DNA of 64,000 bases. Source: Escherichia coli (GTDB taxonomy: Bacteria; Pseudomonadota; Gammaproteobacteria; Enterobacterales; Enterobacteriaceae). This document shows positions 1 to 8,184 of the stretch, one piece after another. The number at the start of each line of letters is the position of its first letter. Positions within the stretch are counted from its first letter, which is position 1. Below the pieces are notes generated by a model, which ran no database searches, had not been told where the DNA came from, and saw only the letters and a program-made list of their open reading frames with translations. The stretch lies in NCBI RefSeq assembly GCF_003018235.1, contig NZ_CP027437.1; one strand, given 5' to 3'. The translations under genes were made by a program, and so were the position numbers.

Positions 1-1128
1 TTGGACCTGGCTTAAGATCTGGCTAAGTGGTTGTGATGATGTATCGTAGATTTTCAGCTCTGCGGATGGATTCGCGGGTGCGCTTACCGCTGCGGTGGTT
101 GCCGCCGGGGCGCTTACAGGCACCGGCTGGGCCGCAGGTTGTTCACCGGTCAGATCGCTAACCGAGGCTTGTGCCGGGCTGGCAACGCCATCCACGGTTT
201 GCGGCTGAGGTTGTTCTGCTACGTCTGCGGCAGGTGCGGCAGCTACCTGAGCCGCCACTGGCTGAGTGCCGATATTTTTCGCCGCTTCAAAGCCTTGCTG
301 AATAGTGCGACCAAATACCGCTGCCTGGCCATTCAGTGGCAAAAGCAGGGCGATTTTGTTGGTCGATGCGGGTTTAAACGCTTTTACGTTAACCAACTGC
401 GTTGGCAGCATTTTCGCGCCCGGGTTGTTCGGATAACGTTTCTGCCAGTCGGCGATCCCGGCTTTCATCATGTCGGGATCGTTACGGTTATCAAACCAGA
501 TGCGCTGCAGATCCAACCAGCCTTGCAGAATATTTTCGTCGGCATTGATCACCAGCGTATTCGCCTGTTCCTGAGTCATGGAGGAGAGCGCCTGCCAGGT
601 GGCGTCAATATTCTGCTGCTTTTCTTTCGCACCGAGCAGCGGTTCCTGAGCAATTAACGCGCGCAGTAAATCAATGGAAGGACGCCCCTGGCTGGCATCG
701 ATTTTTGCCTGCCAGTAACGCGCTTGCTGGTTTTGTTCTAAATCTGCAGGTGTGATTTTCGCCAGCAAGTTTTGCGCGCCAGCAAAATCTTTCTGCGCCA
801 GTTTAATCTCTGCCGCCAGCAGTGTTTTCTCGCGACGCTGAGAATCGTTCAGTTCTTGCGGTAGTTGGTTAAACAACTCCACCGCCTGTCCGGTTTTACC
901 TTCTTTCACCAGTGCACGAATGGCGAGTAATTGCCAGTTGATCCTGGTATCATCAGAACTTTGCTGCATCTGTTGCAGGTAAAAGGCAGAATCAGCCTGC
1001 GCCGTGCCCTGCATATAAGCAGTGGACTGATCGGGAGTATGGGTGCCACAACCGGCGAAAATCAGGGCTGCCAGAACAACAGGCAGACAACGCGCGGCTT
1101 TCAAACGAGAAAATGTTGAGGGTACCAT
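1..1128 (-). CDS. lpoA: Penicillin-binding protein activator LpoA (N-terminal 376 codons; 3' end runs off window start)
   Basis: Minus-strand frame open from ATG at 1126-1128 to position 1; translation starts MVPSTFSRLKAARCLPVVLAALIFAGCG (lipoprotein signal, lipobox) and matches recalled LpoA; divergent from rsmI as in E. coli. Confidence 0.85.
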   Translation of the reverse strand, partial: MVPSTFSRLKAARCLPVVLAALIFAGCGTHTPDQSTAYMQGTAQADSAFYLQQMQQSSDDTRINWQLLAIRALVKEGKTGQAVELFNQLPQELNDSQRREKTLLAAEIKLAQKDFAGAQNLLAKITPADLEQNQQARYWQAKIDASQGRPSIDLLRALIAQEPLLGAKEKQQNIDATWQALSSMTQEQANTLVINADENILQGWLDLQRIWFDNRNDPDMMKAGIADWQKRYPNNPGAKMLPTQLVNVKAFKPASTNKIALLLPLNGQAAVFGRTIQQGFEAAKNIGTQPVAAQVAAAPAADVAEQPQPQTVDGVASPAQASVSDLTGEQPAAQPVPVSAPAATTAAVSAPANPSAELKIYDTSSQPLSQILSQVQ

Positions 1129-1191
1129 AATGTATCCAGTGATATTTTTTTACGCAATGCTCAATATTAAATCGGCAATACGGACGACACA

Positions 1192-2055
1192 ATGAAACAA
1201 CACCAATCGGCGGATAATTCTCAGGGCCAGCTTTACATTGTACCGACGCCAATCGGCAATCTGGCGGATATCACCCAGCGTGCGTTGGAGGTATTACAGG
1301 CCGTTGATCTGATTGCCGCCGAGGATACGCGTCACACCGGTTTATTGCTGCAACATTTTGGGATTAATGCTCGGTTGTTTGCGCTGCACGACCATAACGA
1401 ACAACAAAAAGCCGAAACGCTGCTGGCGAAGCTGCAAGAGGGGCAAAACATTGCGCTGGTTTCCGATGCCGGAACGCCGCTAATTAACGATCCTGGCTAC
1501 CATCTGGTGCGTACCTGCCGTGAAGCGGGGATTCGCGTGGTGCCGCTACCCGGGCCGTGTGCTGCTATCACTGCGTTAAGCGCCGCGGGTTTACCATCCG
1601 ATCGTTTTTGTTATGAAGGCTTTTTACCTGCCAAATCAAAAGGCCGCCGTGATGCGCTAAAAGCCATTGAAGCGGAGCCGCGCACGCTGATTTTTTATGA
1701 ATCTACCCACCGTCTGTTAGATAGCCTGGAAGATATCGTTGCGGTATTAGGCGAATCCCGCTACGTGGTTCTGGCGCGTGAGCTAACCAAAACCTGGGAA
1801 ACCATTCACGGCGCGCCCGTTGGCGAGCTGCTGGCGTGGGTAAAAGAAGATGAAAACCGTCGCAAAGGCGAAATGGTGCTGATTGTCGAAGGCCATAAAG
1901 CGCAGGAAGATGACCTGCCTGCTGATGCCCTGCGCACGCTGGCGCTGCTACAGGCAGAACTGCCGCTGAAAAAAGCGGCGGCGCTGGCCGCAGAAATTCA
2001 CGGCGTGAAAAAAAATGCGCTGTATAAGTATGCGCTGGAGCAGCAGGGAGAGTGA
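1192..2055 (+). CDS. rsmI: 16S rRNA 2'-O-ribose C1402 methyltransferase RsmI
   Basis: 287-aa [31 protein letters not shown]..., tetrapyrrole-methylase-like fold typical of RsmI/YraL. Confidence 0.9.
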
Positions 2056-2158
2056 TATCTCTCCGTGGCCCCGTTTGAAGAACCCATGGGCCGCCTGCTA
2101 AACAATCAGTCTTTTTAGTGAATACCGCCGTAAATCCTCGCTCCGTGCGGACTGACCA

Positions 2159-3115
2159 TCAGGGAGCTAGTTGCGTGGTATAGTTGGCAGCGACCCAACG
2201 ATAACCCTTGCTGTTGCTTTTAACATGCCCCAGGCCAGGGAATGAGATATGGGCAGCTGCCACCCAGTAACCACCCTGAGCCGCATGTTTTAATACTCGC
2301 TCACGGGTTTTTACCGCTTGCTGTTGATCCACATCGAAATGTATCGCCACGTGAGGATCCGGCATCTGCACTGCTTTGGCATGAATAATATCACCCCACA
2401 ACACTAGCGTCTGGCCTTCACTCTCCACTGTGTACATCACGCTTCCAGGTGTATGGCCGGCCGTTGAGGTGGCCGTAATGTCTGCAAATACCGTTGCCGG
2501 TGCGATAAAGGTTTTCAGCTGACCTGCGTTGATCACTGGGCGGATGGTCTGCTCCGATTCGACAAAGGTGTGCTTCTGACTCTCTTCTACTTTCGAGGCA
2601 TTCGCCGGATTAAGCCAGAAATCCGCATCTTTCTGCTCAACGAATACCTGGGCGTTAGGGAAAGCTGGTTTGCCCTGACGGGAGATGCCACCAGAGTGGT
2701 CGGCATGAATATGCGTCAGCAGCACGGCATCAATGGTTTCAGCCGGATAGCCAGCAGCTGCCAGGTTCTCAAGCAGTTGGCCTCCATTGTTGCCAAACAG
2801 ATCGCCCGCACCGGCATCAATCAACACGCGTTGCTGACCATTATCAATAACAAATGCATTGATTGAAGTCTCCGTATGGGGTGTCAGAGAATCCTTTGCC
2901 AGTTGCTGGCGCAGTTTATCGGCAGGAATGTGGGTGAGTAATTTATCTAGCGGAATTGTCACCGTGCCGTCGGAGACGGCGGTAATACGTAGTTTGCCCA
3001 ATATCATGCGGTAATAGCCCGGTGCTTGTGTATCAGGAGGGGGCACAGGTATAGGCGTTGCTAACGCATTTACGGAGAGTACCAGTGAGGTCACCAGAGT
3101 CAGCAAAAGTTTCAT
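2159..3115 (-). CDS. Secreted metallo-beta-lactamase-fold hydrolase (unknown substrate)
   Basis: 318-aa ORF with N-terminal signal peptide (MKLLLTLVTSLVLSVNALA) and HxHxDH motif (THIHADHSGG); not part of the K-12 gene order at this position. Confidence 0.75.
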   Translation of the reverse strand: MKLLLTLVTSLVLSVNALATPIPVPPPDTQAPGYYRMILGKLRITAVSDGTVTIPLDKLLTHIPADKLRQQLAKDSLTPHTETSINAFVIDNGQQRVLIDAGAGDLFGNNGGQLLENLAAAGYPAETIDAVLLTHIHADHSGGISRQGKPAFPNAQVFVEQKDADFWLNPANASKVEESQKHTFVESEQTIRPVINAGQLKTFIAPATVFADITATSTAGHTPGSVMYTVESEGQTLVLWGDIIHAKAVQMPDPHVAIHFDVDQQQAVKTRERVLKHAAQGGYWVAAAHISFPGLGHVKSNSKGYRWVAANYTTQLAP

Positions 3116-3196
3116 TCTATCCTCGATAAGTTCTGTTATTACAGTACGGGCACCAGTATCCTTTTGCGGATAACATCATTCAAATTGATTAATATA

Positions 3197-4132
3197 ATGA
3201 ACTCTATCAGAGAAAATGATTTAAACCGGGTCGACCTCAACCTGCTAATCGTGTTCCTGGTGCTACATCGAGAGGGGGAGCGTTTCACGTGCAGCCAACA
3301 AGTTACACTTGGGGCAGCCAGCAGTCAGTGGCGCGCTGGCACGGCTGAGAGAAATGTTTAACGACCCGTTATTTGTGCGCACGGCAAAGGGGATGGCACC
3401 GACACCACGTGCACAAGATCTGGTTACGGCACTACTGCCGGTGATGGATCAAATGCAGCAGGTGATTTTTCAAAGGCCAGTTTTTACCCCAGAACAGGAT
3501 CAGCATACGTTTCGCCTGGGGATGAGTGACTGGGTCGAACGCTGGCTGATGCCTGGAATGATGGCAGATATAGCCCAAATGGCACCCGGGATTCGCTTAC
3601 AAGTCACGGCATCCGATCCTTTCCAGGATGGCGAAAAAGTGCAACAGGATAAGGTGGACGTAGCAATCTCCGTCGTGGAGCAGGTGCCCGCCGGAGTGGA
3701 ACGAGAAGTGATCACTCAAATGGGTTTTTGTACGATGTGGCATCCGCTCCAGTTATCTATCACTTCACCGTTAACCCTTGATGTATATACTGAAACCGAC
3801 CATCTTTTGGTCTCTTATCGCGGTGCAAGCAGTAGCTCTATCGATCTGATTTTGGCTGACTGCGGGCGTGGGAAGTGCGTTACGTCACGCCAAATTTCTC
3901 ATCGTTACCGTTGATGTTGAGACAGATACCGGCTTTAGCGACCGTACCGCAGGGGCTGGCAGAAGGTTGGGTAGCCGATTATGGGTTGCAATTTGCCGAT
4001 GTCCCACTCGAGGTTCCTGCTTTTACGCTCTCTCTACTCTGGAATAAGCGGCGTAATAATGATGAGGCGCTGCGCTGGTTACTAGAGAAATTACGTGCAC
4101 GAATGCAGGGCTGGGAGATGTTTTCAGAATGA
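3197..4132 (+). pseudogene. LysR-family transcriptional regulator disrupted by two frameshifts
   Basis: Three consecutive ORFs (3164-3361, 3309-3914, 3875-4132) in frames 2/0/2 together encode one LysR protein (HTH ...SVSRAANKLHLGQPAVSGALARLREMF, then substrate-binding domain); +1 shift in G5 run at 3274-3278, -1 shift near 3860-3875. Confidence 0.7.
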
Positions 4133-4189
4133 GTTTGAAAACGTAACAATGTGAACAGAAAATAAGGGCTTTCTAAATTAAATAATTCC

Positions 4190-4329
4190 TGTTGAATATC
4201 ATCGTTAGCGACAACATCATCCACGACTACCAGCAGATTTGCACCGATGGTGGATGTTCAGGTCACGCCAACCTGGCCATGAACCAGAAGGTTATCAATA
4301 CGGGTTAAGAGAATATTGAGTAATGTCAT
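4190..4329 (-). pseudogene. agaB: Remnant of PTS EIIB (mannose family, agaB-like) with premature TGA at codon 24
   Basis: ATG at 4327-4329 with AGGAG RBS; MTLLNILLTRIDNLLVHGQVGVT*TSTIGANLLVVVDDVVANDDIQQ; conserved RID..L(I/V)HGQV EIIB motif; in-frame TGA at 4258-4260; similarity ends around 4190, before the convergent LysR pseudogene. Confidence 0.6.
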
Positions 4330-4383
4330 AGTCTTATCTCCTGTTATCCTTGTCGCCTTTCATTTTTCGTTCTTTTGGCGGCA

Positions 4384-4413
4384 ATAAAAAAGGCAGATAA
4401 TTAATTATCTGCC
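4384..4413 (-). terminator. Rho-independent terminator downstream of the C-S lyase gene
   Basis: Perfect palindrome GGCAGATAATTAATTATCTGCC (4392-4413) followed on the minus strand by a U-run (A-run 4384-4391 on plus). Confidence 0.5.
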
Positions 4414-4420
4414 CTGTGGT

Positions 4421-5593
4421 TTATGCGATTTTTTGCATCCTTTCTAATGCTTGTTCAAGCCAGTATCTTTGGGTGCCGAAGTTTAAACGTAAGTAGTTTT
4501 CACCGTTTTGCACATAATGGCTGCCATCTTCAATAATGACTCCAGCGTTGCGGGCAAAATGATTGACCCATTCGGTCGCGGAGCGTCCACTTTCACTGAC
4601 ATCAATCCATGCCAGATATGACGATTCTGGTGTCATCATTTTCCATTCAGGAAAATGCGTCTTGAGGGCATCATTAAGCCAGTGGGAGTTATTGCGTAAA
4701 TAGATATTTAATGCATCCAGCCACGGTCTTGCATGCTGATAAGCCAGTGTAATTCCCCAAACGCCAAAAATATTCGGCGAAGTGATTGAGTTCATTTCCA
4801 GTCTCTGGCGAAAACGCTGCCTCAATCCTTTATTCGGAATGACTGAGTAAGATGTTTTCAGTCCCCCTAGGTTAAAGGCTTTATTTGGTGATGTTAGCAG
4901 GACCAGATTATCGTGATCGGCACATCCGGTAGCCAGGCAACTGACAAACTCGCCTTCCAGCAGGTGCTCGGCATGGACTTCATCCACGACCAGAATGACG
5001 CCGTAACGTTTACATAAGTCCGAAACCTGGCGAATCTCATCTGCCGTCCAGATTCGCCCGGAAGGGTTATGTGGAGAGCAGAAAAACCATAGTTTAGGTT
5101 TATGAAGTTTAAGCTGATCTTCAACCAGCGAAAAATCCAGTTGATAACGGTTATCCGCAATGCTTAACGGATTTGCCAGCACTTTAACCCCCTGGCGCTC
5201 TGTTGCCATGGCAAAAGGGTCATAGACTGGCGTATTCATCATGACGCTATCGCCCGGCTGGCAGAACGCCTGAACCATATAGTGCAGCGTTGAGACAGTA
5301 CCATAGGTTAGGGTGATCCAATTCTGCTCGATACTTACGTGGTGACGATCGCGCTGGAAGCCTATCACGGCCTCATAAAACTCATTAAAGGCGTATGTGT
5401 AGCCGAAAGTTCCGTGCTCAACAATCCGTTGAAAACCGTCAATTACCGCTGGTGGCGAAGTAAAATCCATATCAGCGATCCAAAGAGGGATAAAATCTTC
5501 TGCAACCGCACCGAAGCGTGAGCAGACAAACTGATGATCCCATTTGCGGCACTTGTCGCTTTTACGCTCGATAATTCTATCGAAATCGAACAT
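4421..5593 (-). CDS. PLP-dependent aminotransferase class I/II, MalY/PatB-type C-S lyase (cystathionine beta-lyase-like)
   Basis: 390-aa ORF, AGGAG RBS; N-terminus MFDFDRIIERKSDKCRKWD and overall pattern resemble E. coli MalY; 12 nt downstream of the PTS gene (operon). Confidence 0.85.
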   Translation of the reverse strand: MFDFDRIIERKSDKCRKWDHQFVCSRFGAVAEDFIPLWIADMDFTSPPAVIDGFQRIVEHGTFGYTYAFNEFYEAVIGFQRDRHHVSIEQNWITLTYGTVSTLHYMVQAFCQPGDSVMMNTPVYDPFAMATERQGVKVLANPLSIADNRYQLDFSLVEDQLKLHKPKLWFFCSPHNPSGRIWTADEIRQVSDLCKRYGVILVVDEVHAEHLLEGEFVSCLATGCADHDNLVLLTSPNKAFNLGGLKTSYSVIPNKGLRQRFRQRLEMNSITSPNIFGVWGITLAYQHARPWLDALNIYLRNNSHWLNDALKTHFPEWKMMTPESSYLAWIDVSESGRSATEWVNHFARNAGVIIEDGSHYVQNGENYLRLNFGTQRYWLEQALERMQKIA

Positions 5594-5605
5594 TTTTAAC
5601 TCCTG

Positions 5606-7177
5606 TTAAATTAAAGCTTCAAGGCCCGTTTTCACACTTTGAACTTGCGGGCCAATAATTACCTGCACACTGTGAGCATCCAGTACAACCACCGACAGGG
5701 CACCTGCATTCTTTAACGTGGCTTGATCCACTTTCGACATATCTTTCACCACCAAACGTAAACGAGTAATACAGTTATCCAGTGAATCAATATTTTCTTT
5801 TCCGCCAAGCGCACTCAAAATCACAGCATGATCATATTTAGATTTGCCTCGTGCTTTTGAATTTGCTGCAACAGCCTGTGCTGCATCCTCAGATGAGTCT
5901 TCACGGCCTGGGGTTTTAATATCATGCTTAAGGATGTACCAACGGAAAACAAAGAAATAAATAGCAAACCAAACAATACCCACCGGAAGTATTAAATACC
6001 ATTTAGTAGAAGTACCCTGCATGATACCAAATATTAATAAATCCAAAATCCCGCCATCAGTATTACCGATAGTCACGCCCAGGATTGCCATAACCATTAA
6101 GGCCAGACCGGACATGATAATATGGAATATATACAACGCAGGAGCAATAAAGAGGAATAAAAACTCAATTGGTTCAGAAATGCCAGTAACAACAGATACT
6201 AATACGCCTGAAAGCAGTAAGCCTTTAATTACAGGACGATTTTCTGGTTTGGCTGTACGATAAATTGCGTAAGCCACAGCAGGCAAACCAAACATAAAGG
6301 TTGGCATAAAGCCTTGGGATAAAAACGCAGTAACATGTGGGCTAAAGGGAAGACCGGCTTTTAATTCTGCATAGAAAATATTGAGTGCTCCGGCAACTTC
6401 ATGACCGTCGACAATTTCTGTACCGCCCGCAGGTGTGAAGCGAACCATTGCAAGCAAGATATGATGTAGCCCGAAAGGCTTAAGCAAAAGCACACCAACG
6501 CCATAAAGGAACGGGCCGAATACGCTGGTACTTTGAATAATGTGGCCAATACCAGCAATACCCATTGCAACATAGGTCCAGAGCAAAGGAATGGCCTGGC
6601 CTACTAATGATAATGTTAGCGAAGTGATGATGGGTACGAAGCGGATACCGCTAAAGAAGGCAAAGGCATCATGTAATACAGTATCCTGAAAACGTTCGTG
6701 GAGAAAATAAGTTATTACCCCGGCGATGATGCCACCTAAAACGCCCATCTCTAAGGTTTGAATACCTAATACTACAGATTGACCAACCTGCTTCATCGTG
6801 GCAGCATCGGCAAGTTGATGGGTAACAGTGAGATAATAATTAATACTCATGTTCATTAGCATATAGCCAACAAAACCTGAATATGCGCCTACTGCTTTAT
6901 TTCTCTTTGCCATTCCTAATGGAATTGCAATAGCAAACATAACAGGTAGATAAGTAAATGCAAAGCCACCTACCATTGCAATAAAGCCAAATGTAAGTTG
7001 GGTAAGCTCACCACCTAAAAAGGGGAAGTTATTAATTGTTGAGGGGCTGGTTACTGAACTACCTATACCTAACAGAAGTCCCATAAAAGCGAGTAATGAT
7101 ACTGGGAACATAAATGTTTTCCCTAAACTTTGGAAAAACTCCCAGACCCGTGACTTTATAGACTTTTCCTGTGTCAT
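5606..7177 (-). CDS. PTS glucose/maltose-family EIICB component (MalX-like)
   Basis: 523-aa ORF; membrane EIIC domain followed by EIIB domain with the conserved phospho-cysteine motif NCITRLR; AAGGAG RBS; resembles MalX/PtsG. Confidence 0.85.
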   Translation of the reverse strand: MTQEKSIKSRVWEFFQSLGKTFMFPVSLLAFMGLLLGIGSSVTSPSTINNFPFLGGELTQLTFGFIAMVGGFAFTYLPVMFAIAIPLGMAKRNKAVGAYSGFVGYMLMNMSINYYLTVTHQLADAATMKQVGQSVVLGIQTLEMGVLGGIIAGVITYFLHERFQDTVLHDAFAFFSGIRFVPIITSLTLSLVGQAIPLLWTYVAMGIAGIGHIIQSTSVFGPFLYGVGVLLLKPFGLHHILLAMVRFTPAGGTEIVDGHEVAGALNIFYAELKAGLPFSPHVTAFLSQGFMPTFMFGLPAVAYAIYRTAKPENRPVIKGLLLSGVLVSVVTGISEPIEFLFLFIAPALYIFHIIMSGLALMVMAILGVTIGNTDGGILDLLIFGIMQGTSTKWYLILPVGIVWFAIYFFVFRWYILKHDIKTPGREDSSEDAAQAVAANSKARGKSKYDHAVILSALGGKENIDSLDNCITRLRLVVKDMSKVDQATLKNAGALSVVVLDAHSVQVIIGPQVQSVKTGLEALI

Positions 7178-7314
7178 TTAATAGACTCCTTGATTTTTAT
7201 AAGCATAGTTTCAAGGTCATGAAAAAGTAATCATGACCTTTTATATTTGTGAGGTAAGTTGTTTTTTATTGTCTGAATACAGCTGCTAAGAAACTGTTAT
7301 TCACATATTTTTAA

Positions 7315-8184
<870 letters not shown>

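Follow-up and report, generated by a model that had tools for sequence, protein, structure and literature searches.

In E. coli, uptake of D-galactosamine (Gam) is provided by agaBCD, agaS encodes the deaminase, and agaI is dispensable (Hu et al. 2013, PMC3668189). E. coli O157:H7 is Aga+ Gam- owing to an amber codon in agaC, and residue Gly91 of AgaF is the one mutated in Aga-negative O157:H7 isolates (PMC3668189). We analysed a 64-kb stretch of E. coli DNA (the window) in which agaB persists as a short 5' stub at the end of the aga locus. Our account, which we hold with high confidence, is that this dead stub was left by a single ~3.0-kb microhomology deletion and has been decaying since. 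The gene itself is well known, and the same agaB lesion is already annotated in public genomes. The features of the region are listed in Table 1.

Table 1. Features at and around the agaB stub (positions in the 64-kb window)
Feature	Position	Strand	Remarks
MBL-fold hydrolase gene	2159..3115	-	318 aa; with the LysR gene at the K-12 yraHIJK position, next to rsmI
LysR-family regulator pseudogene	3197..4132	+	Convergent with the stub; +1 G at 3274, 4-bp loss at 3869/3870, TGA two codons early
Sequence downstream of LysR, kept up to the junction	4133..4188	.	Where agaBCDI is intact, collinear with the beginning of the 329-bp LysR-agaI spacer
Deletion junction	4189..4192	.	Both parental sites have CTGT; overlap of the two blastn segments at 4183-4192
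agaB 5' remnant, pseudogene	4189..4329	-	Codons 1-47 of a 158-codon gene
agaB codon 24, TGA	4258..4260	-	All intact agaB examined, and the stub of O145:H28, have TGG (Trp)
agaB codon 14, CTT (Leu)	4288..4290	-	In place of CGT (Arg); non-synonymous
Spacer between the PatB-like gene and the stub	4330..4420	-	Terminator-like hairpin 4415-4390; AGGAG 4342-4338
PatB/MalY-family C-S lyase gene, intact	4421..5593	-	390 aa; TIGR04350 at 364 bits (cut-off 340)
malX-like PTS EIICB gene, intact	5606..7177	-	523 aa; TIGR02004 at 733 bits (cut-off 632)
kbaY	7315..8172	-	285 aa; last ~19 bp unlike the K-12 type; C-terminus SYKRLR vs SANRISA

We examined the reading frame of the stub and compared it with known agaB genes and family profiles. 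On the minus strand, an ATG at 4329-4327, preceded 8 nt upstream by the AGGAG ribosome-binding site, opens a frame that reads MTLLNILLTRIDNLLVHGQVGVT, then TGA, and then, in frame, TSTIGANLLVVVDDVVANDDIQQ. Positions 4183-4317 aligned to K-12 agaB with 96.3% identity over 135 bp (blastn). Of 5,300 complete E. coli genomes with any hit to the same segment, approximately 5,270 had it in agaB (94-98% identity, E = 2e-57 to 4e-49), which is far beyond chance. With the tryptophan restored at codon 24, the 47-residue translation matched the NCBIfam AgaB equivalog NF007288 (E = 1.6e-20), stub residues 5-47 falling on profile positions 2-44 of 153, at a score of 73.6 bits against a cut-off of 180. Set against what defines AgaB and the mannose-family EIIB proteins (NF007288, TIGR00854), the stub gives a significant profile match; it lacks a full-length domain (~150 residues) at the curated score, its frame is interrupted by TGA at codon 24, and the adjacent EIIC and EIID partner genes (agaC and agaD) are missing from the window. 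By these measures the stub is best regarded as a fragment of the NF007288 family, not a member protein. The initial annotation had described a minus-strand start with an AGGAG site, an EIIB-Man N-terminus and a stop at codon 24, all of which were confirmed in the sequence, and its assignment of the fragment to agaB agrees with both the K-12 alignment and the profile match.

We then considered whether the stub has the properties of a unitary pseudogene. Its place in the aga locus, downstream of kbaY, is that of an intact agaB in E. coli PapRG-06-5, Escherichia sp. MOD1-EC7003 and K-12, among others. Two lesions disable it, the loss of 111 codons and the stop at codon 24. Constraint appears relaxed relative to intact copies, in a small sample and with counts of amino-acid changes as the measure. 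Judged from sequence, the stub is a unitary pseudogene, a leftover of the galactosamine PTS gene that encodes subunit EIIB; it is predicted to be non-functional, and in annotation it deserves the label agaB pseudogene.

The junction was located by comparison with PapRG-06-5 (locus L004), in which the order is rsmI - MBL hydrolase - LysR - agaI - agaD - agaC - agaB - kbaY; this genome served as the parental sequence as a related genome and not as the true ancestor. Window positions 2-4192 aligned to L004 6946-11140 with 97.8% identity, and positions 4183-4317 aligned to L004 14137-14271. Relative to PapRG-06-5, the window lacks 3,006 bp (L004 11141-14146), comprising agaB codons 48-158, agaC, agaD, agaI and 275 bp of the 329-bp agaI-LysR spacer. 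Base-by-base comparison on the plus strand gave ...AAATAACTCCTGT / CAGATAA for the LysR side, ...CATTAATTTCTGT / TGAATATC for the agaB side and ...AAATAATTCCTGTTGAATATC for the window (a slash marks the breakpoint). An imperfect 10-bp match, TAAyTyCTGT, surrounds the CTGT at 4183-4192, and when both parental sides were compared base by base, neither filler DNA nor a mobile element was found at the junction. The join is clean, CTGT is shared by both sides and nothing has been inserted, as in a microhomology-associated deletion. Homology to agaB ends within the CTGT, and the frameshifted LysR gene ends at 4132. A breakpoint had been expected between about 4133 and 4195, with alignment proposed as the means of finding it and any microhomology; the junction and its CTGT were found within that interval.

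Because the sequence downstream of LysR is shared with agaBCDI-intact genomes up to 4188-4192, the loss of agaCDI and the rest of agaB is a plain deletion of ~3.0 kb at a CTGT microhomology, not a replacement. One illegitimate recombination at this 4-bp CTGT would have removed ~3.0 kb from agaB codon 48 to 56 bp past the LysR stop of the window (~50 bp past the stop of the intact gene). Along with the 3' 70% of agaB, it would have taken agaC, agaD and agaI in full and the greater part of the spacer between agaI and LysR. We infer illegitimate recombination from the anatomy of the junction, a 4-bp microhomology being weak evidence for any specific mechanism.

On the other side of the stub, the malX-like and PatB-like genes, annotated in relatives as malX and as a MalY/PatB family protein, lie between kbaY and the stub and are absent from K-12; the initial annotation mentions neither the gene pair nor this second boundary. 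K-12-type genomes do not align between a point ~19 bp before the kbaY stop and agaB codon 4; alignment resumes at codon 5 (4317). AgaB begins with MTLL in the window and with MTSP or MSSP in K-12-type genomes, and the C-terminus of KbaY, given in Table 1 for the window and K-12, is SANRLL... in Kluyvera and Enterobacter. The spacer between the PatB-like gene and the stub was not homologous to the kbaY-agaB spacer of K-12; it was homologous to the spacer upstream of the intact agaB of MOD1-EC7003. Stub codons 1-4 are part of the malX-like/PatB-like haplotype (malX'-patB'), as are the ribosome-binding site and the terminator upstream.

The aga locus of MOD1-EC7003 (NZ_PTRE01000040.1) has the order kbaY - malX' - patB' - agaB - agaC - agaD - agaI - yraHIJ-like. 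As in the window, kbaY is followed by the malX-like gene, the PatB-like gene and agaB, and the spacer and its terminator are homologous; in contrast to the window, agaBCDI is intact there, and beyond it stands a yraHIJ-like fimbrial operon instead of LysR-MBL. Between agaD and agaI, genes that abut in K-12, this locus also holds ~870 bp of tandem REP/BIME-like palindromic repeats (L006 11356-12231). The stub haplotype would most simply derive from a MOD1-like arrangement, through a parent that presumably read kbaY - malX-like - PatB-like - agaB - agaC - agaD - agaI - (convergent LysR) - MBL - rsmI. Among the sequences examined, malX'-patB', agaBCDI and LysR-MBL were not found together in one genome.

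The same pieces could have come together in the other order, with the deletion occurring in a K-12-like kbaY-agaB haplotype and malX'-patB' imported later by homologous recombination, a course we consider rather unlikely. The crossovers would then have fallen in the 3' end of kbaY and the first codons of the agaB stub. This order would suit the position of both ends of the 3-kb malX'-patB' segment inside coding sequence, with the kbaY and agaB frames kept, and the closer similarity of stub codons 5-47 to typical E. coli agaB (96%) than to the agaB of MOD1-EC7003 (85%); the lack of a genome with the complete inferred parent among the sequences examined also speaks for it. However, the agaB-side crossover would have had only 135 bp of homology to work with, and the distribution is one-sided: the malX'-patB' pair occurs in only 30 of 5,426 complete E. 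coli genomes, all 30 have the deletion, and the junction is found in none without the pair. The co-occurrence of pair and junction fits a deletion inside the malX'-patB' haplotype equally well. For agaB, the outcome is identical under either order of events.

To place the loss relative to the neighbouring LysR-MBL cassette, we surveyed the region beside rsmI in the complete genomes. MBL-LysR was found there in 63 of the 5,426 genomes, 33 with intact agaBCDI and 30 with the stub; in the 33, rsmI-MBL-LysR is followed by intact agaI-agaD-agaC-agaB-kbaY. Since the cassette stands beside intact agaBCDI in these 33 genomes, it predates the loss, and two separate events are involved. The MBL-LysR/yraHIJK difference is, on this distribution, a polymorphism independent of the agaBCDI deletion. 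A single replacement, left open by the initial annotation, in which insertion of LysR-MBL displaced the 3' part of agaB, agaCDI and yraHIJK in one step and the junction is an island boundary, would explain why LysR-MBL of the window sits exactly at the place of agaCDI-yraHIJK in K-12. It is nevertheless very unlikely in view of the 33 genomes, with which the window is also collinear through LysR and a further ~50-56 bp, to 4188-4192. The initial annotation had yraHIJK replaced by the LysR pseudogene and MBL hydrolase; this holds as a description of the difference from K-12, but not as part of the same event as the loss of agaBCDI.

The LysR gene is intact (314 aa) in complete E. coli genomes. 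Its frameshifts were found only in the closest relatives of the window (L028 and L032), and three other relatives (L029-L031) have a 312-aa open reading frame. The MBL hydrolase gene is paired divergently with the LysR gene. Its product has a hydrophobic, signal-peptide-like N-terminus as judged by eye, and its best NCBIfam match was the AidB family of quorum-quenching N-acyl-homoserine lactonases, at 203 bits and below the cut-off of 360.

To order the lesions within the stub, we compared its alleles with intact copies. Codon 24 is TGA in the window, N96 and 2020CK-00188, and TGG in O145, K-12, PapRG, LHM10-1, 18KM2445, 32F4 and MOD1-EC7003. Since the O145 stub has TGG at this codon, the nonsense mutation arose after the truncation. 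The R14L change was found, among the alleles examined, only in the window and five close relatives (L028-L032). In codons 5-47, stubs carried 2-5 non-synonymous changes each, compared with 0 in five intact E. coli copies; across alleles these were R14L, G18D, T23S, W24*, N42D/S and D44N. Such a pattern is as expected of unconstrained DNA, in what is a small sample. After the deletion, the 141-bp stub evolved free of constraint, the sub-lineage including the window gained the TGG-to-TGA change at codon 24, and the window's own lineage added R14L; its closest relatives also share the two LysR frameshifts. The description of agaB as cut to a 5' remnant with a TGG-to-TGA codon was thus borne out, with 47 codons remaining and the TGA being the derived state.

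Retention of the stub for a function, whether as a translated peptide of 23 residues, a leader ORF or an RNA antisense to the 3' end of LysR, is most improbable. The good AGGAG 8 nt upstream of the ATG and the persistence of the stub, seen in many draft assemblies as well as in 30 or more complete genomes, are what such a function would call for. Yet the length of the ORF varies, the window, N96 and 2020CK-00188 stopping at codon 24 and O145 not, and the O145 RefSeq ORF has 59 codons and runs past the junction into non-agaB sequence. The changes strike residues invariant in intact copies, including G18D beside His17, a terminator-like hairpin lies just upstream of the stub, and the position of the deletion endpoint simply explains why the stub was retained. 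No promoter-like site was found on the stub strand, and an Rfam scan of 3000-8000 assigned no family to the stub, its sole match being a sub-threshold Termite-leu hit elsewhere.

We next assessed the distribution of the stub haplotype. Among 5,426 complete E. coli genomes, 30 shared the junction; most of these are O145:H28, and the others include N96, 2020CK-00188 and TB06052. RefSeq labels the orthologous stub as a pseudogene, 'PTS sugar transporter subunit IIB; incomplete; missing C-terminus', in AC2A8Y_RS02930 (E. coli N96), IUB69_RS08980 (2020CK-00188) and I3Y_RS29590 (O145 RM9872), and adds 'internal stop' in N96 and 2020CK-00188. These three stubs match the window in locus, junction and neighbours, and those of N96 and 2020CK-00188 also have its internal TGA. 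The window allele differs from all three by the extra R14L, and its LysR gene is frameshifted whereas theirs is intact; identity to the three genomes over window positions 3300-5000 was only 96-97.5%.

Closer relatives were found among other assemblies. An exact-protein look-up with the window's PatB-like protein returned 87 collection blocks. GCA_011972655.1 and GCA_040083855.1 were 99.96-99.97% identical to the window over 11.6 kb, and three further contigs (99.0-99.2% identity) carried the identical 141-bp stub. Altogether, this stub, including R14L and the TGA, was identical in five independent assemblies or metagenome contigs. An artefact of misassembly or sequencing as the source of the truncation or the TGA is excluded by these five independent assemblies and by the identical junction in 30 genomes that were finished independently; misassembly had been named beforehand as something that might overturn the reading. 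The remainder of the window (16000-64000; tdc, gar, uxa, exu and ygjK region) is collinear with E. coli, at 98.4-98.9% identity over 48 kb to the best of the 5,426 complete genomes. The lineage of the window thus has no close representative among finished E. coli genomes, although near-identical drafts exist. In the literature searched, no published description of the stub haplotype was found. Both the junction and the TGA that followed it can serve as lineage markers.

A mildly interesting by-product of this analysis concerns the malX-like/PatB-like pair, which looks like a conserved and unstudied part of aga loci in several genera. We scanned species-representative genomes with the PatB-like protein and then searched the loci by tblastn. 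Five Kluyvera genomes, Citrobacter sp. R56, two Aeromonas species and approximately eight genomes of Enterobacter or related genera have the order kbaY - malX-like - PatB-like in their aga loci. The enterobacterial loci have rsmI within ~0.1-2 kb after the pair; no rsmI was found at the Aeromonas loci. By tblastn, agaBCDI was absent from all of these loci. Between the window and MOD1-EC7003, malX' and patB' were 95.5% and 91.1% identical (flanking genes 86-96%), and between the window and Kluyvera they were 78% and 76% identical (flanking genes 76-83%). Because the divergence of the pair tracks that of the flanking aga genes, the pair looks old, vertically inherited and lost by most E. coli.

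Tentatively, the pair may be an ancestral, uncharacterised 3' module of the enterobacterial aga locus, with K-12 and O157 derived by its loss and the window lineage having kept it and deleted the Escherichia-specific galactosamine module. If this is true and the pair belongs to the AgaR regulon, it would represent a third, unstudied substrate branch of the pathway. Our searches found no literature treating kbaY, malX and malY together, and a role of the pair in amino-sugar catabolism appears undescribed. In the 137-bp spacer between kbaY and the malX-like gene (7178-7314, minus strand), positions 7188-7245 matched the Rfam family Termite-leu at 25.8 bits against a threshold of 51 (E = 0.019); this match is probably due to chance, and the spacer could hold a structured leader. 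In 18KM2445 (L025 3958-4212) and also in MEW, a 260-bp relic with 80% identity to the 3' end of the PatB-like gene plus its terminator follows agaI and precedes a yraH-like fimbrial operon, at loci with an otherwise K-12-type kbaY-agaB junction. This relic hints at a more complicated history of rearrangement between the malX'-patB' and agaBCDI modules.

To assess the consequences for the pathway, we searched the 64-kb window for the missing genes. In line with the absence reported initially, tblastn found no agaC, agaD, agaI or yraHIJK in it, the only matches being the paralogues agaW and agaE at 36-45% identity. In genomes that share the junction (N96 and the O145 genomes listed), the agaB fragment matched at one place only. 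A match to agaC-agaI was obtained in 5,283 of 5,426 complete E. coli genomes and none in 143, which is compatible with loss in the 30 stub genomes as a count that does not tell individual genomes apart. The window has full-length copies of agaR, kbaZ, agaV, agaW, agaE, agaF, agaA, agaS and kbaY, and residue 91 of AgaF is still Gly. Because these genes are full length and Gly91 is kept, the N-acetylgalactosamine branch should work. The predicted phenotype would be Aga+ (GalNAc) Gam-, uptake of D-galactosamine through AgaBCD being lost.

Lesions in this part of the cluster were also seen elsewhere. E. coli 32F4 has an agaI with an internal stop (L027 8422-9189), M217 and one other genome carry an IS1A insertion in the agaC-agaI region, and in WP4-S18-ESBL-08 agaI is split by an IS3 insertion.

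Compared with agaB (b3138) of K-12 and E. coli C, the stub has the same orientation and the same place downstream of kbaY, and its codons 5-47 are 96% identical in DNA to those of K-12. It differs in that only 47 of 158 codons are left, codon 24 is a stop, the protein begins MTLL where K-12 has MTSP, the upstream region is different, and agaC and agaD are absent. The Aga+ Gam- state predicted for the window is the one known from O157:H7, which carries amber mutations in agaC (codon 8) and agaI (codon 72) (PMC3668189); in the window, by contrast, the Gam transporter genes and agaI are physically deleted, not merely interrupted. K-12, through its 2.3-kb agaW'-agaA' deletion, is likewise a case of lineage-specific partial loss of the Aga/Gam pathway (PMC3668189), whereas the Aga branch of the window is untouched. 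These comparisons indicate that the loss of agaB is ordinary gene decay in a cluster known for lineage-specific decay.
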